The notes beneath the pieces are model-generated. The model did not search any database, was not told where the DNA came from, and saw only the letters and a list, made by a program, of their open reading frames with translations. From Ruditapes philippinarum (taxonomy: Eukaryota), in NCBI RefSeq assembly GCF_026571515.1, contig NW_026864902.1, forward strand, positions 62,001 to 126,000: a stretch of DNA of 64,000 nt. The letters are read 5' to 3'. This document shows, piece by piece, positions 12,378-56,191 of this stretch. Within the stretch, counting starts at the first letter, position 1, and every line of letters starts with the position of its first letter. A program made the translations under genes and the position numbers.

Positions 12378-12437
12378 ACAAACATTAAATAATCCAACAA
12401 GCAATGTCACCAGAAACGATATTTTGAGGCCTTATCA
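12378..12437 (-). pseudogene. Decayed signal-peptide-like exon (…LKISFLVTLLVGLFNVC|gtaagt)
   Basis: Hydrophobic frame ends at a phase-0 GTAAGT. ACTTAC (minus-strand GTAAGT) is kept in the diverged paralogs near 20156 and 57577. Related segments at 65-120 (+) and ~49215-49277 (-) start directly after TATTCCAG. No copy has an intact start. Confidence 0.35.
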
Positions 12438-12925
12438 GGAATAGACACGTCAAATTAAACTAGATGGATATTTCAGCAGAAATACACTATACATAAATAT
12501 AAATCCTGACACACTATTCTTACATCAGCAAATAAAAAAAGAAAAAAAATTTGAAACTTTGTTATAAATGTACGCAAAATGAAATGTACTACTTCATAAC
12601 GAGATGAATATTTCTAACGTTTGATAACGTTTCAGTTGGAGAATTATAACAAGATCACGGCAACTGAAGGCATTTACAATCGAGCTTGTCACTGAGTCAA
12701 ACCGTATGCATAATAGTTCATTATTATATTCGGCTTCAGTTTAAATATATAGTTATGCTTACACATTCATGAAAAGCACCGACCTTACAAAATTACATGT
12801 AAGACATAATCCTATTGGTTTCACAATCGGTTGTCGACATAGCCAATTAGATGTTGTTATTGTATGTTATTGTAACAAAGCTTCCTGAGAATGTGACATC
12901 TGTGCAAATGTATGACACTGATATC

Positions 12926-13780
12926 AACAAAAATCGGTTGAACCGGATGATGCTCCCCGAATAGATTTTTGACACAGAAAAGTATACCTCTTGTAGTTTC
13001 AGAGTTATATCCTGGACAAAGTTCAAAGTGCAATAATTCAAAACTAAAGCAAGACATAGTTACTGTTCTTTGCACTGCTAATCTCCCAATGATATCTATA
13101 TACATACAAAATTTCAAAATATGGCAATAACTTCAAAATTAGGCAAGGTATAGTTACGGTTCTTGTGCACTGCACATCTATCCAATGACATATATTTACT
13201 TTAAAGCATCTTGTTCGTATCTATTATACTTTCAGAACAATGTCCTGGACAATGTTTATAATGTAAAAAACGGACAAAGGGCAATAACTACATGATTAGG
13301 CCAAAAGAGTTATGGTTCTTTTACACGGCAATTGTACCCTGTGAGATCTATCTACCTACATAGTTTCATGTTGATATATCTTATAGTTTAAGAGTTATGT
13401 CCCTAACAAAGTTCAAAAAATTAAAATGAACAAAGGGCAATAACTCCAAAATAAGGCAAGGCAATGTTACGGTTCTTATGCACTGCACGTCTACAAAATG
13501 AGACCTATCTACCTAAAAAGTGTCTTGTCCATATTTATTATACAACAGAACGGACGGACGTTCCAACATTTTGGCTTTAGGGGCTATTTTTCTTTGCTAT
13601 TTTCTTTGTTATCTTTAGGGCTACTAGCCCCTAAACCATTTGATCACGGAATGAACCTATTGTTCTCTTTTGTTCTCTTTACTGTTACATAGCCCCTAAA
13701 CCCAAAATGTTTGCTCGGACGGACAGACGGACGGACGGACGGACAAAGTGGCGACTATGCTCACCCTTCGGGAAGCATAA
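12926..13780 (+). mobile_element. Helentron-associated non-autonomous element (HINE/pearl-like) with tandem core repeats and GGAC microsatellite
   Basis: AACAA 5' end, subterminal ATGCTCCCCGA, about 4 diverged cores (AAGGGCAATAACT...GTTACGGTTCTT..GCACTGCA), (GGAC)n, 3' palindrome TATGCTCACCCTTCGGGAAGCATA. Empty site at ~50035-50050. Confidence 0.85.
13560..13716. mobile_element. 157-bp MITE nested in the HINE microsatellite (Sola-like termini, possible GGAC TSD)
   Basis: TIRs AACATTTTGGCTTTAGGGGCTAT / ATAGCCCCTAAACCCAAAATGTTTGCTC; internal palindrome TTTAGGGGCTACTAGCCCCTAAA; GGAC on both sides. Confidence 0.7.
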
Positions 13781-16700
13781 AAATGAAACGATTAAGACTT
13801 CTGAAAAGGATTGACGTAAAAGCAAATATAATAATAACGTTAGATCATTGCATGTATAAAATCTGGAAACAAAGTGTTGTGGTTGTTGTGGCATCAAAAT
13901 ACGTCTTATAATTACTTTCATCATTTAATGCATTATCTAATTGAATGCATCTAACAACCATCAACATACATTTATAAAACAAAATACAATTTAACAAATT
14001 TCAGCAGCTTTATATGAATACTGTCACACAAAAGTGCAGATGGGGGTAAAATAAAAAGAAATAATTTACAGAAAACACAGCCGTAACGGAAGTGAAGACA
14101 TGAGCATTTATCAAATAAACAAGATGTACTGTTAACAATGTTTTGCTTTTTGCTATCAACTAATGCCTACGAATCTCGCTGGTCCATTTGTACAGGATAT
14201 TGCTACTTAATTTTCTTCATTTAATAGTTCTGGTTAATTTGTTTCAAATACTTAAACACAACGTACTTCCTCATTTAACTTTTCTCAAATTAGGCCCCCA
14301 GTTGTCTCGAACTAATCTCAGCCAAAGCACTTATGAATAATTGATATTGTTAAAAAATGACCAACACAGATGCAGACATACGTCAAAAAGCAAGGTTTCT
14401 ATGAACAATTGATATTGTTTTCTTAAAACAAGATGACCAACATACATAGATGTTGAATTATTTGCCCGAAAAGTTTAAATAGTTTATAATGATAATATTC
14501 TACTCTCTTTCTTGTGTTACCAATAGATTTAAACATCATCTTCCTTTAACGCTTTGTAAGCAATTTCATATATGATAACTTACTTTTATTGTATTTTGTT
14601 TATCTCTTTCTAGTATTGCTAGTAAATATATCATTCCTTTAATATTGTCCACATCCTTTTAAATTATTGTGTTCATGCTGTGTGTTGTATAGGCTCCTTT
14701 GACCGGGTGTATACCGATGTTAATTCTTGTTTTCAATTTGTATATTTTTGTTTAGTATTTTAAAATATGACTTACTTGTATTAATTAAAAAAACATGAAT
14801 AAATAAATAATTCATGGGAAATACTTTGTATAATGTATCACATAAAGTCTATATTTAAGTACAACGTTAACCATAAGTAACTATATTTCTACCGTTTTAC
14901 AATATCACAGTTATATAGAATATAGAATATATAACCTTCGCGTTCACACAAAAATATTCATTTTTTTTCTGTACTTGTTATTCTAACAGGGTCAAAATGT
15001 TTAAGTTGCGCATTAAAATGAGGAAATGGAACGACACTATGTATGCATCAAACCATTCATCTAAATATTGCATGTTGATTGAAGTTTAGGCAAAACTGCA
15101 AAGAGGAAGGAAGCAATAACAAATAATAATACATTTAATGGTGATAATTGGATTGGATTCCTACTGGTAATCATTATCGACTGCAATCATCCTTAACATG
15201 TCTTTAACCTTTCTTGCCTCCTTTAGCGTTACTCCAGTGATCATCATTCATGTCAATCTTAAAGTATCATGGGTGACGTTTCGATTATATGATCCCCAGT
15301 ATTTTTTCAAGCCCTGAGACTTAAAGAGAAAAGTATACTTCTTCTAAAAAGAATAAAATGACAAAGGGATTTTAAGTGCAGATTCTCAGTTCATATAATC
15401 ATAAATTATTGAAAATAACCTGACCAAGAAATAATCTGCATTTGATAAGGAGATTGAACAGCGGGATGTGAGTCAATATCTTATTAAATGGGTAGACATA
15501 TCAAAGGCTGTAAATGCTTACATAAGATTGTTTATTGTTCTTCATATAACACTTTTTTGTTGTTAAACATTTTCAATTTTGCCGTGGTGGGATTCTGTAT
15601 TTATCTGTTTCAGAAAATCGTAATCAAAATAAATACAGATAAGAACAAACATGTATGTCAACGGTACATGTGTATGGTACACTTAAAATATTTATTATAA
15701 ATCTGTTTATATATCTCTACATATTGTAACACCATACTCTTAATGTATAAATGACATGCACAAACACGAATGACAGAAAAAAATAATTTGTATCAGAATC
15801 GAGTTACTTTCGTTATTCCAATTGTGTCCTGATTAACTATGTATCTTAAAGGAATTTAAAATAATGCAGGTTAGCAAACGCGTATCTTAAATCAATAAAA
15901 AGCTCCAGATCAATATACTCTCATAATAACCATGTACCTAGATTCTTTATCAATGATGCACGAATAACAAAAATTTAAATGACAGATACAAATCATTAGT
16001 ATATGACCTCGACAAACAAAATGTATCTGATGTAGTGCAAATATATGAAACGGGTTTTATGTTACGCCTTTTATATATCATCCAAGTTTAATCATTGTTC
16101 AGGGTTATGGATATTTACCGTACGATATCATCTGAATGGGCGTTATAATTGTTAGATATTTTCCATTTTTTATTTATGATATCGGTTATCGGTTTCCAAA
16201 CACTTTCAGCACGATGAGCAAAACATAATGATGAAAATACAAATCATCTTAATAAAGAATGCATGGTTATAGTTTTAGTTATAATCATTTGTATTACCAG
16301 GCCCCGTTAAATATTACTAATTAGGGATATACCGAAAATCTCTTGTATTATGAAGGCTCGGGTCATCGGGACTGGACAAAAGTGGTCTTATTTTCGGGGT
16401 GGTCTTAAATATTAATATTCTTATCATTTTTTTAAAATGGTCTATATGGCGTGTATGTATATAATATAAGAAACACTCATATAAGTTCATCATTTTTTCA
16501 AGATAGCTTATCTTTATCTAAAAACTTACTCATTTTGTGTCGGAAACAAAGATATTAAATTTGATAATATTGAAAATATTGTCAGTGACAAAATTTTGAA
16601 CTAAGACTTTGTATCTAACTAAAGCTGTTATTACGAGGATTGCTTGTTTTGTCCGAGAAATCGTTAATATTGTCAGAAAATGTTCAAGTATTAGTAATCA

Positions 16701-18249
16701 CACGAGCTACAGGTAAGCGAACTTAAAATGTTCTAACAATTTTTAGTCACAAATGATACAATCACATGTTAATGAAACGAAATTAAACATACGGTAAATG
16801 TGTTGCGGGAAATAGTTACATTAACACCGACGGAGGTTAATAGTTTTCGTGACATTTAATAATTTCTTTGAACAGACATAATAAAACCCAGTCTGCAATG
16901 TTCATGCAATTTTGCTGCTTCTTATGTTTCCGAGGGATTTCTTGTTTCACGGTTTTGTTTTCAAAACATTCGTTGCGATTCGACGTTTAGTTTTGTAAAG
17001 AAAAAACAAAGACAAAATCATAAAAAAACAATGGCAACGTTTCAAGATTGTCTTAAAACATTCGATTTGATTCGACTCTTGGTATTGTAAAAAAGCAAAA
17101 ACAAAGAAGTTATCAAGACAATGGTATAAGGACGTGACATGTGATGGTTTAGTGGTTTTAATGCAAGTCAGCAATATTTTCTACATTTGTGTCATTAAAG
17201 TACTTGAAGTACTATAAAATCACATTTAGTGTTTATATGATACATTTGATTTTGTAGACGTCGTTCCTGTATTTGTACACATTCGCTGAAGTCCAATAGG
17301 GCATTCGTTCCGTCAAAAAATCGTTTTCTCTATTTTACAGACTACCATTGAAAGGATAAATGCAGTTCTTTTAAGACACTTAACATTTATTGATTTTATA
17401 TCTACGTGTAAAAGAAACTTCTTGGACAAAACTGCGTGATCAAAAAATGTATCAGAAAAATATACTTAATGTCCTAATGGTATATATGAGGACAAAAATA
17501 ATATCACATGGTGATATACGTAAGTTCTGAGCATAATCATTTGCAAACAAGATTTAAGCAAATTCAATACAAAGTATAAAATATACTCATCATGATAATT
17601 TGTATTCAATTAATATATAAAACTGAAGAATTTAATTAGCATAACAACAAACACATCAATATCTTAATTAATTTTATTTAAAAAGAATGATTACCTATGT
17701 AATTGTTTTCAATAAACATATATTTTTTCTCGTAAGCGTAATTAGTTTTAGGTGTCAGGTTTGATTTGGTAAATTCTATAGTTCATGCATTTGATAGTAG
17801 AACTAAAATACACTATTATCTTTTTATGTACTTTTAAACTAATAAACTCATAAAGGTCGACTGTTATCTTTTCAGTGTCAATGGTTAACGTATAGGTGTT
17901 CAGAAACTAATTTAATCTAAGCGCTAAAATTATTTTACGTTTTAGTTATCGTTTTCAGAAAAACAAAAAGAAATTCCTTTAAAATTGTTGACATGGTTGT
18001 GTAATGCTTTAGTATTTTCAACTAAATATTATAGATTAAATTATTACATGAGTTCAATACAATGTAAGTCAATATTTGTAGCATGTACATGTTAGTGTAT
18101 GGGGCCATCAGGAACATCCATCGTACTCTTTTAATATATGTTTACACTATGCAACTAAATCGGCCAACATATTAAGAAATAAGGAATCAGTCAAGGTCAA
18201 TATATCACAAAATTAACTACTGTTATGAATAATACTCTTATTGAATAGA

Positions 18250-21200
18250 AAATGGAAATAGCGTATCTACCTCTTTCTACAAACGTGCCTTTCTTTATAT
18301 AAGAACGAAATTTAAACGTGTGTAAATATCCTTTATCTACCTAAGGTACATACAAATGTATGAATAAATACGTTATCTGACTCAATAAAAGAAATCTTCA
18401 GTTAGCCTTCTTTTTGAGAAGAGATTACTAGACACATAATCACGTATAAGGCATTGAGTAAACATAAAAATCGCTTTCGTCTTGGTTGTTGCCAAGAATA
18501 TATATATATATATATGAAAATGTTGACAAATTAAACACTTAGCATAATCATCTGAATGATGCATCTAAAATCGATAAAACACCCTTAACTGAAATAACAT
18601 TTTAAAACGTAATCTTGTTAATATTAGAAGTACTCAAGAAGGCTAAATGTTTATTCAATCCCGCAGAAGAACCATGCAATAAGCTATTACATTTTACAGA
18701 CAAAGGCTGGTGATTCTTGATACGATTAGAAATATAAATTGAGCAATTTGGGGTGAAATTTTTCTTTCGAGTATCTTGGAAATTACAATATATTTAACTA
18801 CCCTGTCCAAAAATAGACATGTACCATTAATATTCCTTACCTTTATCTTGTTTGGGCAAGACATAAATCTTTGACAATAGGACTGTTTTACAGGGTTGTC
18901 ATACTTTTCCTAATAAAAATAGGAAAGTATAATAACAGATTGGTTTCGGTTCTCAAGGCCTACCTCAGTGACACTAGTACCGATTCGTACGATTGATCGT
19001 TCCTGTAAAGGGCATACTGTACTCGTCAGTAAATTTTATTATGCTTTAAATAAAGATAACAAAAAAGCGCATTCCCGAGAGAAGTACATAATATGTAGTA
19101 AATTGTTAAATTTAATAACATGAAAATGTCTCCATAGATAACTTCATATGGCTTTAAATAACGCGTCGAGAAAACCATATGTAATTATTTTCCTTGATAT
19201 CTCATTTTTAGAAAAAGTGTTCAATAGAAAACAAGTTAAGTGACTACGTAAATTATCGTCTTGAAACATGGTAACATTTTCTTAGGAAGAAGACATACAG
19301 AGGAGGTCTTATGACACGCTTATACTCAGCCTGTTTGTGGTTATAGTCAGGAAGGCAAATAAAAATTACTGATTAAACTGTACTCTTTTTCTGTGGCAGT
19401 ATTTCTTATGTCGTGCTTTATAATTAAAGGCCCATTTTGCCGTAGAAATATTGTTATTACTTTTATATTTATTGGTATCTTGTAACAGTTTCTTTCCATA
19501 AAATATTACTAATTTGCCATATACATGAATAATCTTTTGCTTCTTTTGCTCTTTCGGCAATTAGTTTGATAGAAGTGAATAAGTTTTTTGTATGTAAGTC
19601 AAAATACTACTTTGTTTACATTTTGCTGCATTTACGACGCATTACTGCACATTCAGCGCTATTTTTACCAGCTGTTTAACATGTAACATGCTTTAAATCC
19701 ATAACTAAAACATTGTTAATACACATGTTTGACATTTCTAAAAAAATTAATAGATAATTTTATATTTCTGAGGCATAATGTACCTTTAACTAATATAGCG
19801 GAACAAAATGGTATACTTATGATAAAAATATCGGCTCAAAATTCTGAAATATTTTACATCAGCTACAGTTGTCCCGTTTGTTTTTATGGCGACAATATTA
19901 TAAGAACTATATCACATTTAAAAGGCTTTAATATAGTTGTGATAAACTTGCCAAGCGACATGATCACAGCTGAATGGGGTTCTAACGCTTGCGAAACGCT
20001 TGCAATACATAAGTTAACGCATTGTTTAGAAATAAAAGCGACATAAAAATACATTCATATACAGGTACATGAGAAGTACAAACCACAAGAACTAAAACAA
20101 ATACACATTGTATACGATAAGGTTTTAAGATAAAACATTATTTTCCAAATGAATCACTTACATTAAAATACATTTACATTAAATGTTTTAACTTCCGTTA
20201 TAAACTATGTCACCATACACAGCATTTTATGCTTTATAAAAAGATAGACACGCCAAATTAAAACATAAGATCAATAAGATCCGCTATTCTAACTTCAAAA
20301 AATAAAAAAGGAACGTAACTACAATTGATGCATATGATGTCTTAATTTGATATTGTTTTAGTTCGAAAATCATAACAAGATCACGGCAAGCGGAGCTATT
20401 TAGCTGAATGATTTTTCCAACAAGTATGTTTGTCAATGAGTTAAAAACTCAACCAATGTATGAATAATTGTTATTAGTTACTATCTTCTTCAGTTTCAGT
20501 GCAAAATGATGCCTTCCTGTTATGTTTGCATTCATTAAAAAATTTGACCTCAAAATATTCTCTTGAATAATTCAATTGGTTACGCAATCGGTTATCGACC
20601 TTACCAATTGCATTATATTAGGCTTTAACTGCTCTAACCGGAGATATCAATGGCAGCTGTTATTACACATGTTATTCAAACAGTAAATGAGAATAATTGT
20701 TTTGATAAATGTGTTAATGCTATGATTGGAAATTATTTAATCTTCTTAGAGTTGTTCTTGTGTGAAATGGGTGTAATCTTTATTTTTTGTGACATTATGC
20801 TCATATTTAAACTTTGAAAAAGTTGATTATGGCAAAAAAATAAACCAATAGTTGATATTGAAATTGTTATATAAAAGAATGCCCAACTCTGTTTGAAAAT
20901 TGAATGGTTAACGTAAATTTAAATGGATAATTATAGAAATTTTCATGGGCTTCATGAGTATAATTATACGAAGTTATTTATAAAATTGAAAGGGATTATG
21001 GCAAAATGTAAAGTTTAAATATTGACTTTTACCTATTAACTCACTTAACATCATTGGACGAACATGAATTCTCTTTTAACTTGTTATTTATTATTACTTA
21101 ATGTTAAACAAATAGATAAATAAACACAGATGGGATTATAATGCTTCAATTGTTATTCTTAAATAATGAGAACGTGACGTGTTTGTAATAGTAATGCTAA

Positions 21201-22560: not shown

Positions 22561-24786
22561 GATAATACCATACTATGAACTACATCTTATTCGTTTGGTT
22601 AAGATATAAAAATATTAATAAAAATAAGGTCAAAGATTGATTATTCTTTCAAAAAAAATATGTGATAAAAGCACGCCTTAACAGAATTATTGACACTAAA
22701 CCTGAGAGTGTTGTTATTTCCGGTTAGTGCATGGACAGCTTATTGAGTTTGTTTACTAACACATGTAGCAAAATAAAAATATTAAACAAACCACGTATAA
22801 ATCATGTCAATAAAGCAACCTTTGATTATGTTTGCAGGGCTCTCAGCGCAATTACTTTACATGCCATAGAAACTGAACACAAATCAAAGAAGTAATATAT
22901 AACAGTTAACCCGGTTTATTGCGCAGCCTAGACGTACCTCATACTTATCGAGTTGTGTTTCGTGTTTCAAGTTTATTTGATTATCTCAGTATGCATACAA
23001 ATACGTGTATATTCCCAAAATGTTGTGTGTCAATTTTAGGCTAACGTGAACGCAGAGAAAACAAATTATGTATCACACCATTCTCAAAGCTAAGTTCTCA
23101 ATACAAGCTCTATTATAAATCAATGTACATATTATAAAAGAAACAATTATATGAATTTGAAAGATAACTTATTTTTATTTACAAATTGGTTTCGTAAACA
23201 AAGATATTACGTACATTTTGTATTATATATTTTCCCTCCGGCTCAGAACTCAGAACTCGAAAAACGATTATATAAAAATATAACTGAACTGGAAAAAAAA
23301 CCAACAGATAATCAAATGCTTTTGTTGATTGCTAACGAAACAACAGTTGAATTTGTAATAGATGATCATATGAACTTGTATTAAAATTTTCTTGAATGCA
23401 AAAAAAATCTAATAAACAAACAACAACAACAACAACAACAAAATCCCAATTAAATAACGTTTACTTGAAAAATAATTTGGCTCTGATAACAAGTATTTTT
23501 ATCAGCAGAACATTCATCATAGTTGATAAAATATGTCATGAGAGATTTTTGTCATAAAATATTTCATGTTTTCGAATCGTTAGAAATATTTACAAATATA
23601 TTGCTTTCATCCATATCAATCTTACGAATAAACAGTTTTGTTCATGATTTCTCTCTCATTTTTTACAAAAAAGCAGATAATATATAAATTATTCTAAAGT
23701 TCTATTCATCGAAAAATCTTGCGTAAACATGCTCCAAGATTTTTTTCGTCACACAAAAACTGCAGGTTGTTGTTATTGTGATGTACAATACATTCTATAA
23801 TTGCCAATTCCAGACAACCTTGAGTAAATTATATTAACATCATTGTTATTACTGTCGGAAAGAGCTTTATTCGATGTTATCCTCCTTCAAGTATTACGTC
23901 ATTAATTGCGAATAAGAAAGACAGTTTATTACAATGGTCTTCATCTTTTACTTGATCATCGCATTCATGCATTACTTTAGAGGTAAAAATAAAAAAATAT
24001 AAAGTTATTGACACTTCTCCGACTTCACTTAATAACCTAATTACACTCTTAAACTCTTGAGATCTTGTAAGATTATCTTGTAAGTTATTAAAACACAATG
24101 ACAGATAATGTTACGCTGTTTTTATAGCAAAAAAAAATCTATAAAACATTTATAAGTTCAGAATAATGAGAATACATCAAAATATAGATTTGTAACTACA
24201 GTACTGTATCTTATTCAGTAAAGGCCGAATATTCTCCTCCTGAAATGCTTTTACTTTTTAAAATTTTAGTCTGTGTACTGTAATAGTTTAAATGAAACAC
24301 TCATTGGCAAATAACATATTACTATATATTACAGTAATAGTGATTTAATATTTTTATAGGGTCAAAATACTACTTTGTTTGCAATTTTCTATTTTTGTGA
24401 CAAGAGAAGGTCAAAACACTTTCTCAGTCATTATGTGCCTTTAAATTAATGAACTGGCTTCTTAAACATAGTCTTAGTTCTGTCCATGAACAGGCTCAAT
24501 CAAACCGAGCCTGCAACATTTTACAATTTTGCCGTGTTGGGCTTTCTTTAGGGATTCTGTTTTCCACTATTTTGCTAATTATGAAGTGTACCACACTTCC
24601 CTTTCTTTCCCTATCTTCAAATCAACAATGACCTTACTTGAACGTCACTCAACATCCAAAACATGTACGCACATGACATTGTGATTATTAAAAGAATAAG
24701 AGAAAAGGATTATTTTAAGAATTCATTAAAACATATTTTTTACATATTAACAAAAAATGTTGTTAGACCACGAAATTATAACTTAC

Positions 24787-24862
24787 ACTTCTCTTGTATT
24801 TCTTTGATTTTATTTCATTGTCAAATATAAGAATCTTTATACATCTTCGACGTATTTAATTC
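24787..24862 (-). pseudogene. Decayed C-x2-F-x2-C family exon (ELNTSKMYKDSYI*Q*NKIKEIQEK)
   Basis: TTCAG acceptor and GTAAGT donor. The Cys positions read TAT and TGA, each one change from TGY. NKIK is shared with 18841-18909. Further donor and acceptor sites follow at ~24637 and 24511. Confidence 0.3.
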
Positions 24863-25667: not shown

Positions 25668-26968
25668 AACAAGCGATTATCATAGTATTGCAAGCAATCC
25701 ATAAGTCCCCTACCGGTTAGAACCCCATCAACATTCTGAAGGGCCATTGGCCATTCACTAGTGTTTCAATTTTTCTCTATTTTAAGTAAATTTGTTGGAA
25801 AAGTTCTTTAAAAGTGATCACAGGAAACAGTTTTTATGAACAGACAGACAGACAGACGGACTGAAGGACACTCTAAAGTTAATATATGAAACATCCCTGT
25901 TACCAAAATATAGCATTTTAAAAGCAAAATTCTTAAAGAGGAGATAACTCTTGAATTAAAGATACAATTTCATAAAAAATTTCAGCTCTTTTTGACTTAT
26001 CACAAATATTGTTATAATTGCCATGTTTTAAGCATATTTGTTGCCAAGGCAACTGATATTTTTTCAAAATAGGAAGAACAGATAAGACATGCATAATCTC
26101 AAGACTGCTATCTACCCATATGTCAAGTTTCATAAAAACATTTCCAGTACTTTTTGAGTTATCACTGGATTCAGTTTATGTGTAAAATTTGCCATATTTT
26201 CAGTGTATGTGTTGCCATAGCAACCAGAATTTTCAACATAGGAAGAAAAGAAAAAAAACGTGCATTATCTCAAGACTGCCATCTACCCATATGTTAAGTT
26301 TCATAAAAATATTTCCAGTACTTTTTGCGTTATCGCTGGATCCAGTTTATGTGTAGAATTTGCCATATTTTCAGCCTATTTGTTGCCATAGCAACCAGAA
26401 TTTTCAACATAAGAAGAAAAAAAAACGTGCATTATCTCAAGACTGCCATCTACCCATATGTCAAGTTTCATGAAAATATTTCCAGTACTTTTTGCGTTAT
26501 CACTGGATCCAGGTTATGTGTAAAATTTGCCATATTTTCAGCCTATTTGTTGCCATAGCAACCAGAATTTTCAACAAAGGAAGAAAAGAAAAAAACGTGC
26601 ATACTTTCAAGACTGCCATCTACCCATATGTCAAGTTTCATAAAAATATTTCCAGTACTTTTTGCGTTATCACTGGATCCAGTTTATGTGTAAAATTTGC
26701 CATATTTTCAGCCTATTTGTTGCCATAGCAACCAGAATTTTCAACATAGGAAGTAAAAAAAAAGACGTGCATAATCACCATACTGCCATCTATCCATATA
26801 CCAAGTTTCATAAAAATATTTTCAGCACTTTTCAAGTTATCGCGGGATCCAGTTTTGTGGACGGACGGACTGACGGACGGACAGACAGACGGACAGACGG
26901 ACGGACAGACGGACAGACGGACGGAGGGTAAACCTAAAGTCCCCTCCGGTAAACCGGTAGGGGACTAA
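25668..26968 (+). mobile_element. Helentron-associated non-autonomous element (HINE/pearl-like) with ~170-bp tandem cores
   Basis: AACAAG start, subterminal AGTCCCCTACCGG (~25705), cores starting at 26098, 26269, 26436, 26606 and 26776, (GACG/GACA)n at ~26859-26925, 3' palindrome AGTCCCCTCCGGTAAACCGGTAGGGGACT. Empty A-rich site at ~59670-59690. Confidence 0.92.
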
Positions 26969-36245: not shown

Positions 36246-36547
36246 TCAGATTTGGCCATATAAACATTTAACTATTATGACTACTAATCAGAGAAAAGCA
36301 TTTGTTTATATTTAAGTGTCTGATTCATTATCAATTGATTGAAGAGGCTAACATCGAATGAAGTTCCGTTGATCAAATCACAAATTCTAATGAGGATGCT
36401 AATATATTCAAGGTTGTCTAGCGTTGAAATAATTTTGCACAATTCTTAGAATTCACTGCAGTCAATTTATAAATGTAATGGCTTTCGGCATATTTACATC
36501 ATTTACTTCTTTACTAGGACGTCGATACATGTTTCCATCTTATTGAA

Positions 36548-42702: not shown

Positions 42703-45700
42703 ACTGAAACTCAAGATAATAAAAAAAAACAAACTACTTTCTGAAACTGAATTTATTTTTTTCGAAATTGATTAAAATGTATCCATCTGTTGTTCTACCT
42801 ATATTCTAGGTAATGATGGATTTATCATAATTGTCACAAGTTATAATTAACAAAATTTTATAAACATAATAACATGATATAGGTTCATGAGCTTGAAATA
42901 AAGTCTACAAAGACTTGCTATTTTATATCAAACAAGAACTTCGCGAGTCGGACGTGTCGCCTGACAATAGCATAAACATTTATGTATATAAGCAAATAAG
43001 CAATTAGCAAATAAGCAAATTGGCAAATTGGCAAATCAGCAAATAAGCAAATTGGCAAATAAGCAATTAGCAAATAAGCAATTAATAGTTGGCAAATAAG
43101 CAAAGTGGCATGTCCCTACCGGCATTCCATACTACAATAACTATAATCGGTGTGGACAGAAATTTTATCCAGAATCCCAATTTTGGTATGACAGGTAGTT
43201 GAAAATCATCTGAAATGAAATATTTAATTATATTTATAACATATCAAAATCTATTCAATAATTTCATGATATAAATGTTGACACATTTTTATTTCATACG
43301 GTTTTTCTAATCCTGTTATATGATAAACAATGCTTACAAAGTTTTATCGAGTATGTTCAAAAGAGATACTGAAAGTTGAAACGTTTCTCAAGTCCTTATC
43401 ACAGACTTCATACTATTCAATGAAAGAAAATAGTTCATATTGTCCTTTTAAAAACAAGAAGTTATTATCATTTACATATTTCTGGGGTTTTATTTTCGCT
43501 GTTTACAAACTATTGCATTGACTCCAATATTCTTCATATTTATAATTAAGTTATGATTTTGCACATGAATAACTTTTCCGTTATTACCGAATGGCAAATT
43601 GTATGTAAATAAAACGGATGTCAAGATGGCATTTTTCCGGTAAAAACAATAAACTGATACGTAACGTTAAGTTAAGGTTCCTTTTAAAGTAAGGAAAGCA
43701 AAGACATAATAGAAAAAACATGGTACTGCAAGTGATATGTTAATGTACGATGACGTATTCATTTTTTCGGTATTTTTCTGTACATATAAAACACATATGT
43801 TTCTTCGTAATGTAGTCATCACAGCTAGGAATGTACTAGAGACAACTATTATATATTTAATACAAACAAAGCACTCTTCCATAATTATCCTTAGAGTTGT
43901 TTTTTTTATTATTTTTGTTATATTATTATTCCTTCTTTATTTAGATTACTTTTTTATTGTACGAGATTAATATTACCAGTTGTTTTCCATACAAAAATGT
44001 CCTTCAAATACTTTAAACAACAGATACTTAAAACTGAAAATAATCAATAGGATTTTAGATAAGAGAATAACTTAATTGCAGTCAAAAGATTGTTAAAAAA
44101 CATATGTTGTTTACGAATCATTTTTATCCATTTTGATTGATACATTTATAAATAATGACTTTTCTGCTTGTCATTATCAATTTGGTCTGCAATATTAGTT
44201 GATTGACACAAATTATGTTATTAAAAGTCTTCTCTAAAATGGTTGCATTTCATTTAATAAACTTTATAACGCTTCTCCGGTTTCTTTTTGCCTCGCCGGT
44301 TTTTGGCAAATTCAACCCCTATTTTACGCGCTTTAAAAAAATGAAAACTATCTTAAATTGTCATATTTACTTAAAGGTTTAAAAGTTAATATGTTTTGTT
44401 TTTCTATCTTTAATTCTTATTTGTAAAAGTGCATTTGAAGTTGGCCATGGGAAAGTGTGTTTTGCCATGGCATGCCGGTATTTTGCCATCAAGATATGCT
44501 GGTAATATAATAAATGAATCTTACGCTAATGTGGGAAAATCGACCTTGAAGATACGTTAATACTTTCCAGTAAGAAGCCTACAAAGTTACATGTCTTGAT
44601 TGAAAAAGAAAAAAAATGATGTCTAAACAATTTTAAAAAAGAGTCAAGGTGGTTAAAGTACGAACGGCACAATGAAGATATATATTTACAATGGTGTAGA
44701 CAATATTTTATATTAAGGGTCTTCAATGTGTGTAATTTTTATAAATTTTTATAACAGTGGGTATAAAACGATTTGGAAACAATTAAAATGTGTTGGTAAT
44801 TTAAGACATCAAATTATAAATAGTGTTCGTAATTAATTGGAGAAGAAATCTTGTGTGATACCATATAATCTCCAAAATAATTCAATTTAAGAGATACTAT
44901 AGTCGTAGATTATTAGAGATATAGCTGATAACCCGGTCAAAGCATTTCCTGGTAATGGGAAATAGACATTAATGACTTAAATCGGGCCACAAGTTGAACG
45001 GACTCTTAAAGTTATTTGTTTCTTCTTTGTATGCATTACAATTGCAAGATATTTATTCATTTCGTTTCAATGTCAATGCATATAATGTATGACGCCCTTA
45101 AATAGATGGAAACTGTTTAAACCCAGTATGTTATGGTTTGCATATAACTATACATGAATTTTAAATTGATGTAAAACGTTATCACGGTAGTTAATCTTGA
45201 AGGTATGATGTTGTTACACACGGTTTGTCAATAAAATGTTTGAGAAAAGACCGGACTTGGTTTCGTTCATAATTTGTATATGTGTACTTTTAACTCCAAT
45301 GAAAGTGTTTTTAAAAATATGGCATGAAAGTCACTATTATATGGGCGTCAACACCTAACTCATTATGATTTGCATCATATAAACTGGTTAAATAAAAGCT
45401 GCGATATCAACTTATTATTGAATGATCTATTTTTTGTATCAGATAAGTTTCCTTCATTTATGTTATCAATGTTAAGAAATAATATTACATGCATATTGAA
45501 AGATAAAAATGTAATGTAGACAATTCAATTGACACAATCACTCCAATGCTATATAACCGTTTAAACAAAAATGTTTCTCGTGTTAAACATATTTTAAATT
45601 TAAGAGTTATTCAAGACAATTGTATTATTTTTGTTTTGAGAAAGTAAACATGCCACCTTTTTCATCAGTATGGATTGAAAGAAAATTAACTCCAGTACAA

Positions 45701-47019
45701 GAAATTTCAAATCAATATGAAACTAAACATTCTTCTCGGTTGTAAAGCAAATTATGTTTTTCAACAATAACAAAGTACCTTACTGGTTTAAATGGTGTAT
45801 CTTAAATGATGCAGGAGATCATAAAAATATAGCTATTAAACACACTTTAATAGATATGACATTGAAATGACGGAAAACATGTTTGATTTATATATTTTAA
45901 ATCTAAGTTTACGTAATACATTGAACGTATGGTGTTGTTGAACACGTTTTGTCAGTGAATTATTAAAAAAAGACCTGATTTGGCTTTAAACTTAATTTGT
46001 AAAGGTGTACTTTTAACTTCAATAAAATGCTTTCGTTATCAAATCAAATATTAAGTAGATTTTAATTTATAGATATAACGTGAAAGTCAATATAATATGG
46101 GTGTCAACACCTAACACATTATGATTCGTATCATAAACACCGGTTAAATAAAGGCTGTGACAGACGCGATATCAACTTATTATTGAATGACTGATTAATT
46201 TTATTACCGTCATTTATGTTATCGATGTTACGTATATTAGTACATGCATATTGAAAGACAAAAAATGCAGTGTACACAATTAAATTGACACTATCCCCTC
46301 CAATGCCATATAACCGTTAAAAGAAAAATATGTTTAATAAACTTATAGTAGACAGTTGTTTAATTTTTGTTTTGCGAAGTCAACATGCCACCTTTGTATG
46401 GATTAAAAGAAAATTAACACCGCTATATAAATTTCAAATCAATATGAAACTATACATTCTTCTTAATTGTAGAGCAGATTATCAATTCCAACAATTACAA
46501 TGTACCTTACTGGATTCAATAGTCTTAATAATCTTAAATCGATGCAGAAGATCACAAAAAGAGCTATATACCACACTTTAACAGATATGACATTGAAATG
46601 ACGGAAAGCATGTTTGATTTACATATATTAAATCTAAGATAATTGTCTATGGATAAAGTACAAAATGCCTTATAAAAGGAAATAAAACTTTAAGACTGTC
46701 ACATTACTGTTAATATTGACAGACGTATTTTAACGATTAGATTCTAGTAGACAGATGTTTCTATTTAATATGACATTGAAATGACGGAAAACATCTTTGA
46801 TTTATATATTTTAAATCTACGTTTACTTAATTGTCTAAGGATAAAGTACAAGGAAATAAAACTTAAAGACTGTCACATTACTGTTAATATTGACGGAAGT
46901 ATTTTAACGATTAGATTCTAGTAGACAGATGTTTCTGTATAAGTACAATCTAAACAAAGTCTCATAATAGCATAGTTATCAATTAGTTCATGTAGAATAA
47001 TTGTTATATAATTGACATG

Positions 47020-47023
<4 letters not shown>

Positions 47024-47056
<33 letters not shown>

Positions 47057-47086
47057 GAATAATAATATTATTATTAACAATAATAA
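47024..47086 (+). repeat. (AAT)n microsatellite
   Basis: Direct reading. Confidence 0.95.
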
Positions 47087-50000
47087 CAAAAAGGGTCAAT
47101 ATTTAACTAACAAATGACGAAATGCTTACAAGTTATATAACGTCAAAGTTATAAAATTGATAATTGGGAGCATAAACCATCCCAGTCAATGGATATGACC
47201 TACTTTTCCATTTTAACATATATCATCCATTAGGTCCGAATAATTCTCTTTTTTCACCATGATGATGATTGTAAAATATATACATTTGTTTTTGTTGGTG
47301 ATTTTTCTGTCGTAAATAGTGTAAAAGTAAAGCAATATGCTTGATAAATAAATTGCAACATTGTTTTTTTTTTATTTTTTGTTATGTTGATATGTTTTAA
47401 TAAAACGGATGTTATCACAATACTATTATACAGACTAAGTCATCAAATTAAATGTACTTTACGTAATTATAATTATAATTAAAAACACATCACTAAAAAT
47501 AACATAACATATGTCTTATTCATTATAACAATTGGTGTGCGAAAAATCGTCAAATATCGTTTTTAAATTAATTGGGAAAGAGATGAATTTAATGGGACTA
47601 TTGCTGATATTGAAACATAATAGCATACCATCTTTAGACAAAGGTTTTTGATTTATTTCCTTGATGAACAAAGAATAAATCTGAGTAAACGTACCTTCTT
47701 CACCAATATTACATAAAATATATGAATAAATACGTTATCTGACTTAACGAAAGTAATCTTGTAATGACCTTTTCAATCAGCAGAGATTACCAAACACTTA
47801 ATCACGTTTAATGAATCGGGCAAACATAAAATCGTATCCGCCTTATATCAAAGATAGTGTTGACAAAGTAAACACTTTACATATTTAAATGATATATCTA
47901 AAATCGATGAAACACCTTTAACAGATAACATTGAAAAATGGCAAGTGTTTTTGATTGACAGTTCATATTATCAGAGTTCATTGAAACAAATAATCAAGTT
48001 TTCTAAAATGTGATCTTAAGCGTTGACATGTCAAAACGTTAAGATTCAGAAATACGATCTTGTTAATATTAGACGGAATATTCAGACAGCCAGAATGATG
48101 TTTCAAATTCTATAGCAGAATCATGCAATTTGCTTGTACAATATGCAGATAAAGGTTGATGACCCTAGATACATTCACAGACACTTGAGGAGATCCAAAT
48201 GCGTTAAAATCTAAATAAATTGTATTGTCAATCTTAGCACTTATACTTGTCATATATATATAAATAAAACTTTACTTAAACAAAAATCATATTTCAAAGT
48301 AGATAAAAATGTTTCCTGAAAAGAGAAACTCTCCTTCAAAATCACTTGTCATTTTATTCCATTTCTAATATTCTCACAAATCACCGCTCTTATCCTTATG
48401 TCCATCGACGCTGTACGTTTTCTTTACGATCGTTGTCAATTTTACACTTCATCTTCGATATAAACAGCACAATATTCGAAATAAACATAAAAACTACCTC
48501 TGTTTTGCACCATTTACAAAATCTTTTGGCTAATTCAGACGTGACTCTCGAGTTTGTCATATTCAAATGCGTCAAGCTTGAACCTTGGGTATTAGCCTGA
48601 CTTTGGGAATATGCTGGTTCCCACTGTCAAAGTGCACCGCATTGGAATATTGGAAATTGCACTATGTAAAAGTGCTTTGTTCTAAATTAGACACGTATTA
48701 AACATTGCTTGTTATTATCTTGTTTGTTTTTGACAAATACCCCGTTTTGCCATGTGTTGTACTGTTCATTTAAAAAACAAAAGGCAAGTATAATGAAATG
48801 ATTTTAGACTTTGTCCAATATCTAAAATACTAGTACCGACGAAATATTTTTGATACGAATATTCGAAACACGACAGAAAGTTTCATCATGCTTTAAATAA
48901 AGACTGAGTCTTTCTGCGATGTACTTACACGAGAATTGACTTTTTATGTAAAATAGTTTTTGTTTCTAAGAAAATCCAGAAAAGTAATGTAGAAATTTGT
49001 TAATAAACTGTATCAAATTTATATAACCGAAAATAGCTTAACTTATTTTACATAAAATGATTTCTAAAATGATCTGAGCTGGATGGTTTTTTAACGATTG
49101 AGAAACGCTTACAAAATGTAAAGTTTATTGTTTTAGGTGTATCTAAATTTGACCAAAACAATTACTTCTGTTTAACTTGTTTACATGTTAGAAGCCTATA
49201 TCGAAAATATCCTTTATATTAAAAGGTATTTAACTTGAAAAAACAGTGTTATCAATGATACATTAAATAAGCTTAATCTGGAATAAACACGCCAAATAAA
49301 ACTACATGAAGTACTCACCAGACATTAACTATAAATAGATATAAATCCTTACACGCTATTCTTACTTCAGACAATAATACAGAATGTATACATAATTGAT
49401 ATTTATTATATTCGGCTTCAGTGCATAATATGTCTGCCAGTTATGGTTACGCAATCACTAAAATCACTGGCCTTACAGAATTCTCTTGATTTAGATAAAT
49501 ACATAATCCCATTGGTTTTGCAATCGGTTGTCGACGTAGCCAGTTAGATAATTTTAGACATTTTACTTTAAATAATTCTAACCAGAGATATTCATACTCG
49601 TAACAATGTAATAACAAATCTTATCCCAATAGTAAATAAGACTTATGACTTTAATAAATGTCTTGTCTCTGTTAGGAATTTATTTAATCTTCTTAGATTT
49701 AAGCTTCTGCTATATGCCTATAGTGCTATTTGACAGTGGGAACCAGCATATTCCCGAATGGTTTCGATTATAGCCAGGCTAGTTCAAGGTTCAAGCTTGA
49801 CGCATTTGAATACGACAAAGCCATGTTCGTTAAGTTTAATACATAATATTTCTGGCGTTGACGTAAATCGTAGCTGAACGCTATACTAACTTGTATGTTA
49901 ATGCCCAGCCGCCCCTCCCCAAACAAAAAGGTAAATTTAACCCCAATTGGGATAAATACTGATTTTAAAGTTTTTATTGTACTATGTTATTATAACAATG

Positions 50001-51029
50001 GTTCCGAACGAACCGTATTTGAAAATGTAAGACGCTGATAACAAAAATGAAACGATTAAGACTGCTGAAAATGATTGACGTGGAAGCAAATATAATTATA
50101 ATGACAATCATGACATGACCAAAATAGATAGGTGTGGCATCTGTAAACGTCTTCTAATAACTTTATCATTATTTGATAGAACCTATCTAACAACCATCCG
50201 CATATATCTGTAAAAAATACAATTTTAAAAATTTCAGCAGCTTTACATGAATACTATCACAAATATGTGCAGCCGAGGACAAATTAAAACAAATGATTTG
50301 CAGAAAGCACAGTAATAACGGAAATGAAGCCATACACATTAATTCGATGAACGAGATGAACTTTTAACAATATTTTGTTATTTCCTATATACTTATGCCT
50401 ATAAGTCTCGCTGGTCCATTTATACAGGATCTCGCTACTTTATTTTCTTCATTTAATAGTTCTGGTTAATTTGTTTTAAATACTCAATCACAACGTATTT
50501 CCTCATTCAACTTCTCTCAAATTATGCCCCCAGTGGTCTTGAACTGATCTGTTCAGACATTTGCCGAACATTTCAGCCAAAGCTTTTATAAATAATTGAT
50601 ATTGTTAAAAAATGACCAAAACAAATGCAGAGATTCGCCAAAACATTAAAATCAAGGTTTCTATGAATAATTGCTATTTTTCTCTTAAACCAACATGACC
50701 AACATAGATGACTACTTTTTTCGATGTGTTACCAATAGATTTAAATACCTTTTTATCAAAACAATATTTTTTATTAACGCCTTGTAATACTATCAATTAC
50801 TGTAATAACTTACGTTTTGTTTCTCTTATCTCATCTCTTTCTAGTATGCCGGGTGTGTACAAGTGTTAATTCGTGTATTGCATGTTCATTGTTTAGTACG
50901 TTTACAAATGTCATATAAATAAAACAGTATAGTATTACGCAAATACATAATTCAAGGGAAATACCGTAATACATGTATCATATAAAATTTGTATTATTAA
51001 TAAGTATAATTTTAAAGATAAGTAACTGC

Positions 51030-51652
51030 TAATGCTCAACTTGTGCTTCAGCGTTACGCAGTCAATGACGGTTACTGCTTCTCAAAGTTATGTCCATCAC
51101 TATTTTTTTATACCACTTTTAACACTAATGATCGTGTAATTTTCTTTTCTCTGTTCCTCTGCTGATTTTTATCAAATGGTTTTGTACATGTTGTAGGTGT
51201 CTTTTCCAAATTACAAAAAAAATAAAATATGATCGTGCGATTTTCTAATTACCACGTGTCTGTCATTTTCCCGTTGAAAAGAATAAAGGCGTCTGGCGTT
51301 TCTAGCGATATCAACAAAACTAAACAAAAATGACGTCCATTTTTTAAAGAATTACTTAAATGACATCATAGAAGAAACATGCGATTTTCAGCGGGTTTTC
51401 TACGTTAATTGTTTAGTTTTTAGCAAGAAATATACGATGACTTACTGCGCTATTCTACCATTCGACGGGTGCCGTGTATGTGCTTATTTAAAAGCAATAT
51501 AAAATTATTATTTGATGACACTATTAACTATTCCTTTCAAAATGTTTTGATAATATTCTAAAATGTATGCTGATAAATTTTCATTACAATACACGTTGAC
51601 GTTCAAGAGATATTTAAAAAGTCCACGATTTTTTTTAATAACCCCTGGTATA
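51030..51652. mobile_element. Arm-B-specific insertion with a Tc1/mariner-like end
   Basis: Absent at the paralogous position (~14880). The right end reads TA|TACCAGGGGTTATTAAAAAAAATCGTGGAC on the minus strand. No partner TIR found. Confidence 0.4.
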
Positions 51653-51747
51653 TTACAGCTTTTAAAAATATTATGGGGTATACAAATTACAATCACGAAA
51701 TAGCAATTTTACAATTTTACAATACTACAGAAGAGTTCCTATACCTT

Positions 51748-51902
51748 ACGGAACGTCAGTGAATCTACTCAGGTACCCGTTCGTGCCTGAAATTATGCAC
51801 GGAAGGGCACCTGAGGTCTTCCTCCACCAGTAAAGCTGAAACGACGCTATATGACCTATACTGTGTCGGTGTGACGTAAACCCCAATAAAAAAAACAAAC
51901 AT
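51748..51902 (+). mobile_element. 5'-truncated bivalve-type SINE with 12-bp TSD
   Basis: Body GCACGGAAGGGCACCTGAGGTCTTCCTCCACCAG...TGTGTCGGTGTGACGTAAACCCC plus A-rich tail. TSD TTCCTATACCTT (51736-51747) / TTCCTACACCTT (51903-51914). Absent at ~14935. Confidence 0.85.
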
Positions 51903-54900
51903 TTCCTACACCTTCACACAAAGCTATTTAGTTTTTCTAGTACTTTTGATCTTCACAGGATCAATATGTTAGGGTTGCGCATTGAAATGTGGAAATGAGA
52001 CGAAAATCTGTATGAAATAGATCATATTATTCCTCTATATATTTCATGTTGATTGTAATTTGAACAAAACTGCAAAGAGGACATAACAAATAATGATATA
52101 TTGGATAATGATGCAAGTTTCTAATGTTTGAAATTTAAAATGAATGTTTTATACTATATAGAAAACTAACAAGGTTCTATCGAGCCGGTTCCTTGAAATT
52201 TGTTTATTGAGTGCCCGCAAGTAAATATTTCCCTCTTTTTTATTGTTGGCCTTCTATGCGCCGTACTGATTGTTCTTTGAGACTAGGTATTGTTAGGGAC
52301 TGCGTCAATGAACTTTACTTCTTCGTTGATGTTTTCTGACGTATTTGAAGTATAAACGCTACTGTAAACTCATAAATAAAATTAAATTGCTTAGTACAGA
52401 TTCTTAGTATAGACATTTACTCGTCTAAAATAACAGGATAAAGGCATAATCCTCATTTGATAAGAGGATTAAACGGTTAAAATATCGTTTATATTTAGAT
52501 GTATGTAAAAGGCTCTAAATTCTTCTGCATACACGATTTTGTTGTTTTTCTAATCTAATTATAAAAAAATGAGAATGAACATGTTTGCCAATGGTACATG
52601 TTTATGGTTAATTTTATACCTGTTTATATATTTTTTACATGATGCATGAAAACGAATTACAGACAAAATCATGTATCATACTCGAGTAACTGTCGTTATT
52701 GTAATGCGCCATGGTTTAAAAGATATAAAATAATACATGCTATCATAGGCGTATTTTGAGTCAATCATAATCTTCAGATGTATCTAGCATTTGTAATCAA
52801 TTATTATACACTAATAACAAAAGTTTAGATGTAAGAAACAACAAATTATTATATGACCTCGAAGTCGACAAAGCGGATCTGAGGTAGTGTATAGATAAAT
52901 AAGACGATGTTTATGTTACTGTTTTGCATTTCTTCTTTTTAAAATCAGCAAAGGGCTTAATATTTGTTTCGGGGGTTTTTGTATTTTGGGACCGAGCGAG
53001 GGTATCTAAATTGGATTTTAAAAACTTTTTTAGATTTTTTACCGGTCTTTTTTTTATGATAGTAGGGAAAATGGGGGTTATAATTTTATAGGGGGTTTTC
53101 AAAGTTTACCCAAAATGCTTTCCGCATGTTTAAACCCAAAAGGGGTAATGATAAAATTAAAGCTCTTCTGGATAAGGAATACATGGTTATAGTGTTAGTG
53201 TGATCATGCTTATCTCTAAATGTCATTATAGATATACCTAAAAGCCCTTGTATTAATAAGGCTCGGGCCAGTATGAATTTTCTGGGTTTTTAGGGTTGAA
53301 ACAAGGGGTAACGTGACAGAACAATTGTATAGCTATATCATCATTATCAATGCTATTGATTCCTTCTCTTGTAAACAAAAGCCAGATGAGCATCATCGCA
53401 TAACAATGAAATATCCAATACTTTTATATAATAATATCAACTAATTTAGCACAAACTCTAACCCATCAAGCAATGTGTATAGAGACAATTATGATGTCAG
53501 GAATTGTTACACTTTATAAGTGCAGTAAAATAGCTTCATGATGTTCATTATTCGATTGATGACAGGAACAAATTAATGCAACAAAAGATTCATGAACAGC
53601 GTAATTGTTTTCAAGTCGACAAATTGTACAAAGAAGGAGCAACTATAATTGCCATTATAATAATTAAATCAATCCTTTTCTTTCTTGTTAGAACACATGT
53701 AAAATAACAGTTATAACTTAATTCTAATAACAGAATTCATAAGCAGCAGCATTCGTGAATATCGTGACAGTTCTTGTTAAGATAGAACTAATGAAATAAT
53801 GTAAGTTTGAATACTTTGAATCATATAACATAACGAATCTCGTAAATGTATCTTTATATGATTTCTTAACATTTAATGTTTATTTCTAAAGTGTATGTGT
53901 CATCATTTAGAAAATGTATCAGCAACAGTCATGCCAACAATCAACTACAGCCTGTATTACGTAACGTGTACCAAGCAGAAATTAATACTTGACAATTACA
54001 ATTATATTAAAATGATTGCTATTTGGACTGAAAAAGAACCCTTGCTTTGGATAATTTCTATAAGTCTTTATTAAAACCCAAAAAATACACGAAGTAATAT
54101 TTGCTTATAACTTGTGTTGGTAAGGGAAATGTTTATATGTACAAGTCATTTTCGTATTATTAGTTACAATGTATAAAGATTGTTGTCTTTATAATAATTA
54201 TGTTTATATTGCTCACAATAATCGGTTATTTGATTGTACAGCGGCTCGGGTTATACCGTTTACAACATTTTAAACACGGTCATATTACATGTCAAAAATC
54301 TTCAGCACAAATCTATAATACAGGACAACTCCTTACATGCCGTGGATTAACAGAAGAAATCGGTAAACGACGATTAATACCTGCAGTAGTGTACAATGTA
54401 ACATAGTTATGTAATGTTTATGATAATTATTAAAACACTGGCACAAAATCATTAAACATTTATCATGTTATGGTTATTAGATGTTGAAATAATGTGATTT
54501 CATCAAGTTGTATTATAATCTGATGAATTCAAAAAATAATTTTATTTAATTGTATCTTAGTATCAGTAACAAAGCCATAATATAGAGTTGTATGATGTTC
54601 TATTTTAACTCCAGGCCCACACAAGATAACATCAAACTCTATATGAATAAGACGTTCTATATCGTTTGGATTAGATTTAAAATAATAACAAAAAAGGCCA
54701 ATGCTACCTTTCGCATTTAAATATGTGATAAAGTACAGCAATACCATCTTTTCTTAGTAGAATTGAGGAAATTTTACCTGATATTGGCTGTTAAATCTGA
54801 TAAGTGCATCAGCACCTGGTTGAGATTGTTACTAGGAAATTAAGAACAGCATCCAGACATAACACATGACAATAACAAACTTTGTCTGTGTTTGCTAGGC

Positions 54901-55950
54901 TCTGGGGCCATCTTTTTGACATAATATGGTAACTGAACTCAAATAAAAGTAGTAATATATAACATAATAATTAAGCAGATTTATTGCGACGCTGACTCAT
55001 TCATCTCAAACTTATTGGTTTTTATTTCGTGTCTATCACCCAACAGCTGTGTATAATAAGTTGTATAATAAGTTTTTGCAATTCTGAACGCAATTAGGGA
55101 CGAAATTGTTATGTGGGAGATCTTTTGACTTTATTTCCTTATTGAAAAAACATTACAATGTTCTTTGTAATAAATAATAATGGAACGGCTTAAAATATTT
55201 ATAATAATCGTTTTCTTGACTTTTCATAATTCCTTGTGAACAGACACAATAAAACAATTTTCTGTCGAAAAAAAAAAACAACAAAGGCAACGTTTCCGGA
55301 TTGTCTTAAAGTGTTCTATAAGGTTCGACGCTTAGTATTGTACAAATACAACAACAAAAAAAGCAGACAAACATGAACACAAACACAAAGAAAAAAACTA
55401 CGGCAACGTTATGAGGAAGTGGACATGTGATGGTTGAGTGGTTTAATGTAAGTCATAAATTTTCTCTACATTCGTGTCATTTAATTTCTATAAGTACTAT
55501 AAATCTCTTACATTTAGTGTTTACGTATATTTCGTACAAATTCGCTGAAGAATTTTCTTTATATCACAAACAACCTTCGAAAGGATAAATGCAGATCTTT
55601 CAAGACGCTTAACATTTATTCATTATGTATGTACGTTTTAAAGAAACTTCACTGACAAAACTGGATGATCTATTAAATGTATCAGAAAATTATACTTAAT
55701 ATATTAATGTAATGCATGAAAAGCAAAATAATATCACATGGTGATACACGTGAGTTCTTAACATATTCAATTACAAACAAGATTAAAGCAAATTGAATAC
55801 AAAGTATAAAATATGTCCATCATGACAACTTGTCCTTGCTCAATAAATGAGACTGAGGGTTTTATAAGCACAACAAGAAAACACATCAATATCAATATCA
55901 CTGTTTATTCCTTGTTTAACTTAGTGTATGGGAACATCAAAAATTATTTC

Positions 55951-56087
55951 NNNNNNNNNNNNNNNNNNNNNNNNNNNNNNNNNNNNNNNNNNNNNNNNNN
56001 NNNNNNNNNNNNNNNNNNNNNNNNNNNNNNNNNNNNNNNNNNNNNNNNNNNNNNNNNNNNNNNNNNNNNNNNNNNNNNNNNNNNNNN
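55951..56087. other. Assembly gap (137 N)
   Basis: Run of N. The equivalent interval in arm A is ~1.1 kb (about 17680-18810). Confidence 1.
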
Positions 56088-56116
56088 AAAATAGACATGT
56101 ACCAAATATTCCTTAC

Positions 56117-56191
56117 CTTATCTTGTTTTTTAATTAGGCAATTAATAAATCTTTGACAAAAACGCCGTTTCACAGTGCTGTTATATTTTCA
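56117..56191 (-). pseudogene. 75-nt phase 0-0 exon, *KYNSTVKRRFCQRFINCLIKKQDK (paralog of 18841-18909)
   Basis: CATTTTAAG acceptor, AAG|GTAAGG donor, both Cys retained, length differs by 6 nt (frame kept); the first codon is TGA. Confidence 0.45.

Follow-up and report, generated by a model that had tools for sequence, protein, structure and literature searches.

Several families of short secreted peptides are known from bivalves, and within each of them the exon structure is kept. The CRP-I genes of Mytilus, which encode short secreted Cys peptides, are clustered with degenerate pseudogenes and have a non-coding first exon followed by small coding exons (PMC10138031); the I84 protease inhibitors of the razor clam are small secreted proteins from tandem clusters and carry a C-X5-C array (PMC9198434); and the hypervariable myticalins come from clustered genes with many pseudogenes and have their signal peptide on its own exon (PMC12294457). 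A cluster of dead genes of this general kind was proposed for a 64,000-nt stretch of the clam Ruditapes philippinarum (contig NW_026864902.1, positions 62,001 to 126,000 of the forward strand; hereafter the window, to which all coordinates refer). The original prediction held that about ten short segments on both strands, sharing C-x2-[FY]-x2-C and mostly AG/GT-bounded, derive as decayed exons from a single, fast-evolving family of secreted Cys proteins. The best explanation in our analysis, and one that we consider just probable, is that these segments are pseudo-exons whose number duplication has increased, and that at most one locus among them is plausible as the relic of a gene for a secreted peptide.

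The segments resemble the described systems in outline and depart from them in detail. In CRP-I, the last exon encodes six Cys in the order C-C-CC-C-C, and a dibasic pro-site is present (PMC10138031), whereas the segments here have at most two Cys each, are of the internal exon type and include no intact member. The C-X5-C spacing of the I84 array is the spacing found here, but the I84 inhibitors have 12 Cys, six per exon, in three exons with two type-1 introns (PMC9198434), compared with two Cys and phase-0 boundaries in the window. Myticalins have no Cys and a phase-1 intron in all members (PMC12294457), whereas phases vary among our segments: 0-0 (18841 and 35759), 0-1 (36673), 2-0 (34634) and 1-1 (31744). 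Since exon structure is conserved within bivalve peptide families, the phases 0-0, 0-1 and 2-0 of the three best segments count against a single family; common boundaries and phases are confined to 18841, its duplicates and 35759. The neuropeptide CCAP (PFCNAFTGC; PMC6523705) contains an exact C-x2-F-x2-C, so the bare motif is unspecific. The segment at 56117 is flanked on both sides by basic pairs, in the manner of CCAP, but in these segments Asn never follows the first Cys and Gly never precedes the second, the segment at 18841 lacks dibasic sites, and none of the 23 motif occurrences in the window has both the Asn and the Gly of the CCAP core C-N-x-F-x-G-C in place. The H-P-x-C-x2-Y-x2-C of 36637-36673 resembles the second and third Cys of CBM14/peritrophin-A (chitin-binding type 2), but the other four of the six Cys required there are absent, and the frames holding 36673, 31744, 18841 and 34634 gave no match in Pfam. 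Neutrally evolving duplicated DNA yields pseudo-exons, and the window resembles such DNA in that open AG/GT-bounded segments occur at the frequency of shuffled sequence and have no codon signature. It differs by a hint, a three-way Cys-motif match somewhat above chance (P 0.015-0.12).

Duplication and decay dominate the window. Its G+C content is 30%, with short N gaps, and it has no long reading frames besides two overlapping pieces of a class-A G protein-coupled receptor (GPCR). About 54% of it has a homologue elsewhere inside the window, and the copies are decayed, so that the graveyard of nested duplications described in the original prediction is borne out. The main component is a direct repeat of about 20 kb (8987-29946 and 44489-63863), with a median identity between copies of 83% (706 windows) and with a tandem unit of greater age, about 7.5 kb long, nested inside it; an inverted partial copy lies at 57-6019. 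The divergence of about 17%, together with copy-specific insertions, argues against allelic mis-assembly as the source of this duplication, and we rejected that origin. Since the Mercenaria genome consists of 2% coding sequence and about half repeats (PMC8905726), such a landscape is ordinary. The copies carry no codon-level signature of selection: over all duplicates, 512 open runs had a synonymous share of 0.248, vs. 0.224 expected, with a best P of 0.009 of 512.

All 12 segments named in the original prediction were found where it had placed them, but their shared features were present in part only. The full motif occurs in four of the five main segments (18841, 56117, 31719 and 36645); the fifth, at 35759, has a stop at the position of the second Cys, and the motif is complete in none of the four weaker relatives (in the regions of 24787, 27195, 59935 and 54680). 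Splice-like boundaries were confirmed for several segments. The best, 18841-18909 (minus strand), is open, in phase 0-0 and bounded by TAG/GTAAGG, the highest-scoring splice pair of the whole window when scored with approximate matrices. Its segmental duplicate at 56117-56191 (minus strand; AAG/GTAAGG) has stops in all three frames, as does 35759-35818 (plus strand; CAG/GTATGC; phase 0-0). The 36645 segment counts as bounded once it is read as 36637-36673 (minus strand), an open single-copy segment of 37 nt with the motif, CAG/GTAAGG and phase 0-1, on the strand opposite to 34634 and 35759. Finally, 24787-24862 has CAG/GTAAGT boundaries and stops in all frames, and 27168-27262 (plus strand) has TAG/GTAAGT, one Cys and an open frame that differs from the Cys frame. 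The boundaries did not hold for the 31719 segment, which has weak AAG/GTAG sites alone, from 31744 (phase 1-1), for the paralogue of 27168 at 59864-59969, which lacks the donor, or for 54640-54709, where no splice boundaries were seen. The synonymous TGC/TGT and TTC/TTT changes reported near 59935 are real, but they are two C/T transitions between compensating frameshifts. A further C-x2-F-x2-C, overlooked in the original prediction, lies in 34634-34745, in frame upstream of an ATG.

Links among the segments were found where DNA had been duplicated. The segments at 34.6, 35.7, 36.6, 31.7 and 54.7 kb have no DNA homology to the 18841 family, and profile hidden Markov models (HMMs) of the duplicated blocks gave no link to 34.6, 35.7 or 36.6 kb at E<=10. 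In targeted alignment, none of six non-duplicate Cys segments reached P<0.05. At the peptide level, the non-duplicate segments scored 14-32 against the 18841 peptide, and shuffled windows give about 10 six-frame scores of at least 30. The three best segments (18841, 36637 and 34634) also place the motif differently relative to the segment ends. Given the differing phases, the lack of a DNA link and the noise-level peptide scores, one family for all segments is not established, and no intact homologue was found in the protein searches. The original prediction named no family, and none fits: among 246 frames searched against Pfam (236 of at least 52 aa and 10 chosen) plus eight targeted ones, the two GPCR pieces alone reached curated cut-offs; Rfam gave no matches, and a four-row exon profile gave two PDB matches at E 1-1.8, which are noise. 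In a word-based search of proteins of 71-2000 aa, with those below 71 aa outside its range, the same profile had 89 candidates, none at E<=10, and a 24-position profile had no HMMER match at E<=0.001 among 1.84 billion representatives. The 34581-34784 frame had no candidate among proteins of 37-119 aa, longer ones being outside the range. GPCR matches from Mercenaria and Ruditapes indicate that clam proteins are present in the database. No venerid family of this kind was found in the literature, supplements and subscription papers being outside its scope.

The copies of 18841 show the same decay. Both of its DNA duplicates, 56117 and a more decayed one at 48690-48810 (minus strand) that has lost both splice sites, are broken. 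Over 18 codons, 18841 and 56117 differ by nine non-synonymous and two synonymous changes, with seven codons identical, which reveals no purifying selection on the frame, and the exon-like segment is kept no better (53/67, 79%) than its flanks (99/115, 86%, and 29/29, 100%). We rejected the proposed 18841/18774 junction: its intron would measure 66 nt, the resulting frame would run into a stop after 26 codons, and the paralogues do not conserve the region of its acceptor.

On the best explanation, the window is neutrally decaying clam DNA, built up by tandem as well as segmental duplication and containing repeat insertions along with a GPCR gene that is dead. Such AT-rich DNA yields some 30-40 open AG/GT-bounded pseudo-exons per window, from which the original prediction may have selected those with a common, loose two-Cys pattern. 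Duplication would have inflated their count, since 18841 recurs as 56117 and at 48.7 kb, 35759 as 36036, 27195 as 59935, and 12378 in three paralogues. At most one locus, 34634-34745 with 35759-35818, would be plausible as the relic of a short secreted-peptide gene. We infer that the shared motif is a coincidence and that nothing in the window is expressed.

Chance tests agree with this explanation in part. By itself the motif has 23 six-frame occurrences, several of them duplicates, compared with 17.0±3.9 in 60 Markov nulls, which lack the repeats of real DNA, and the 38 open AG/GT-bounded exon-like segments are no excess over the 34.5 in nulls. As the motif had been read off the tested segments, it was also left free. 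Any C-xk-C spacing common to three loci then had P=0.44, and P was 0.12 when one residue class had to be shared as well; for motifs of equal specificity built on any pair of rare residues, P was 0.11 (1767 nulls); a stricter acceptor rule, which excludes 36673, gave P=0.14-0.31.

Other results weigh against pseudo-exons and coincidence; they concern the combined tests, the power of the blanks, and the arrangement of the segments at 34.6-35.8 kb and in the tandem units. The motif in an open frame with YAG/GTRAG sites occurs at three independent loci (18841-18909, 36637-36673 and 34634-34745), compared with a mean of 0.13; none of 636 nulls reached three, and a refutation by shuffling, as proposed in the original prediction, therefore fails. 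These strongly spliced open segments have C-x2-[FY]-[IM]-x-C in common, and spacing plus two residue classes (an aromatic, then an aliphatic residue) had P=0.015 (1767 nulls). With 23-37 informative residues per query and restricted length ranges, the protein-search blanks are weak negatives. Neutral decay explains the lack of a synonymous excess, but hypervariable peptide exons or long-dead copies would also show none, so that this null is compatible with both. Of the segments, 35759-35818 sits 1.0 kb behind 34634-34745 in matching phase, and, when all 216 acceptors were used as anchors, it matched the 18841 peptide best, in the same phase and register (P=0.09). The 12378 segment ranks 6 of 4194 tiles against the 34677 signal exon, and each 12378 paralogue is followed on its own strand, 0.5-1.4 kb downstream, by an 18841-type segment.

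The best exon candidate, 34634-34745 (plus strand), has a TTTTTCAG acceptor, an ATG at 34677 and a phase-0 GTAAGT donor (intron phase 2-0); it is single-copy in the window and open from end to end. The ATG begins a 23-codon signal-peptide-like stretch, a basic part followed by a hydrophobic run. By the simple rule used here (a basic residue plus a hydrophobic run) nothing else in the window qualifies as signal-like (P=0.05-0.10 against nulls). Of the three phase-0 signal exons originally predicted, the one at 34677 is a convincing candidate, whereas 30542 has no donor at 30610, with a phase-2 GTTAG only, and 12378 has a donor but no ATG in its hydrophobic frame. The following segment, 35759-35818, reads K-W-x-N-P-x5-C-x2-F with a stop at codon 17; it and about 150 nt downstream have a tandem copy at 36036-36250 (plus strand; 75% identity), in which the acceptor is lost and the Cys frame stopped. 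Judged from their sequence, 34634-34745 and 35759-35818 are plausible as one relic two-exon secreted-peptide gene, and each element of the locus is modestly unlikely by chance. Upstream of 34634 lie a TATA-like box (34013) and, at 34122, what may be a donor. A single 20-nt match near 30.46 kb suggested that the exon has an inverted paralogue there, which was rejected (profile E 5.2).

Among the alternatives, the one that survives best is a small old family in which a phase-0 signal exon precedes, by about 1 kb, a phase 0-0 exon K-[YW]-x-N-P-x5-C-x2-F-[IM]-x-C, with all other segments due to chance; we regard it as possible but doubtful. Its copies would be 34634/35759 and three tandem units with 12378-type and 18841-type segments, all dead here. 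Its product would be a small secreted peptide with one short disulfide loop, likely, on analogy alone, a mucosal or immune effector; for the immune, shell or gamete-recognition role originally suggested there is analogy only and no sequence evidence. In its favor, signal-like and Cys segments share order, strand and spacing in both settings, the phase and register of 18841 and 35759 agree, and 18841 and 56117 keep both Cys codons and the donor flank (29/29). Tandem arrays, moreover, usually amplify a functional gene, and peptide-gene clusters with many pseudogenes are known from mussel and razor clam (PMC10138031, PMC9198434). The 12378 segment (12378-12450, minus strand), a hydrophobic frame with a phase-0 GTAAGT at its end, has a weak colinear DNA likeness to 34677 (P=0.02 in targeted alignment, one of 11 targeted tests), but its paralogues near 20.2, 49.3 and 57.6 kb lack such a reading frame and rank 106, 1401 and 1947 of 4194 tiles against the 34677 segment. 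Further, none of the four 12378-type copies has an ATG-bearing signal frame, their joint profile ranks the 34.6-kb site 83 of 4094, and HMMs miss that site; 35759 ranks only 484 of 4146 tiles against the 18841 family at the DNA level, no third exon was identified, and once the number of tests is corrected for, none of them stays significant. The weak two-exon echo between 34634/35759 and the 12378/18841-type units is what speaks most for a small real family, although one that we would still call unlikely on this ground. Put more generally, the tandem units and the locus at 34.0-35.8 kb could be dead members of an undescribed, venerid-specific secreted-peptide family with one C-X5-C loop on a phase 0-0 exon, subject to birth-and-death turnover and still alive at other sites in the genome, a proposal that we make tentatively. 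That any real family exists here, in whatever form, seems to us to fall somewhat short of an even chance.

Some segments could instead be real exons of unrelated or larger genes, or of a non-coding transcript, with introns spanning the region, which we consider improbable. For example, the whole of 34634-34745, being open throughout, could be an internal exon with a Cys motif followed by a membrane-spanning stretch, but neither the targeted frames nor the search of its surrounding frame gave a Pfam or database match. Another exon could be a 130-150 nt island found at 32959-33109 (plus), 34069-34221 (minus), 24400-24545 (minus), 16783-16925 (minus) and 6078-6199 (plus), which would perhaps also be a further gene part of the venerid family. 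It is retained in at least five copies though the flanks no longer align, and in four of five a stop-free antisense frame starts at an ATG; however, the synonymous share singles out no frame (10/35, 10/36 and 13/33), and an old dispersed repeat fits equally. The island may be an old repeat, a regulatory element or an exon. One of its frames resembles C-R-L-G-L-I-E, weak matches occur at 55208-55255 (minus) and 43341-43393 (plus), and its 33-kb copy adjoins 32048-32625, where the block seen at 28431-28903 and 62842-63317 occurs for a third time.

The weakest reading is the full one, in which all segments belong to one family: it gains from motif loci that beat shuffles even with loose splice sites (9 vs. 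2.8 expected, P=0.0016), from the ranks of 27168, 24787 and 59864 when tiles are compared with the 18841 family (44, 66 and 70 of 4146, all within the best 2%), and from a first Cys 12 codons ahead of a phase-0 donor in the Cys frame of 27168-27262, as in 18841, but we judge it very improbable because several of the nine loci lie inside repeats (3.2 and 26.1 kb), none of the four weaker relatives has two Cys, phases disagree, a shared donor hexamer helps the ranks of 27168 and 24787, and 31749, 34634 and 36673 rank 1333, 3197 and 3411.

Returning to pseudo-exons in duplicated DNA, the remaining features of the window are a dead gene and repeats. The class-A GPCR pseudogene (40404-43228, minus strand), identified by Pfam and protein matches, has a frameshift near 40865 and an in-frame stop and lacks its 3′ end. 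Of 221 candidate proteins, 13 matched it at E<=1e-10 (identity 52-82%); the six named matches, from Mercenaria mercenaria and R. philippinarum, are 68-78% identical and FMRFamide/GHSR-like. By themselves these matches make a venerid or a related clam the most likely host. Its first membrane segment is split by a 1957-nt element (41175-43131) that lacks a long open reading frame; the ends of this element are inverted over 43 nt, 8-nt repeats lie subterminally, and TA appears to have been duplicated. The gene is dead through insertion, frameshift, stop and loss of the 3′ end.

Among the repeats, an insertion at 298-3268 breaks the inverted duplicate and has long inverted ends 95-97% identical (298-360/3206-3268 and 625-1048/2784-3207); one arm contains a second, nested repeat (369-634), which matches 61569-61886. 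Arrays of 157-170 nt units at 26018-26960 and 13123-13744, each missing from its duplicate copy, end in a GGAC/CGGA microsatellite, the layout given for bivalve DTC84/pearl-type elements (PMC3879986). Two short palindromic elements resembling miniature inverted-repeat transposable elements lie at 37412-37574 and 39256-39408. In the 9-11 kb family, the best-conserved block is a 49-nt exon-like segment at 4807-4855 (minus strand); its paralogues near 10.3, 45.9, 46.6 and 46.8 kb carry CT, and the GT donor is found in the 4.8-kb copy only. A short sequence kept in all four unit copies (12505-12530, 20290-20315, 49360-49385 and about 57.8 kb) can be read as a minus-strand donor or a plus-strand acceptor.

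If no family is real here, the window shows AT-rich duplicated DNA producing convincing pseudo-exons. If one is real, it would work like the mussel CRP-I, myticalin or razor clam I84 clusters and so be of a known kind, though it lacks the Cys arrays and the exon phases that define them. Venerid clams would then have a secreted-peptide family specific to their lineage, and such families would be traceable through pseudogenes that lie below the cut-offs of gene callers.

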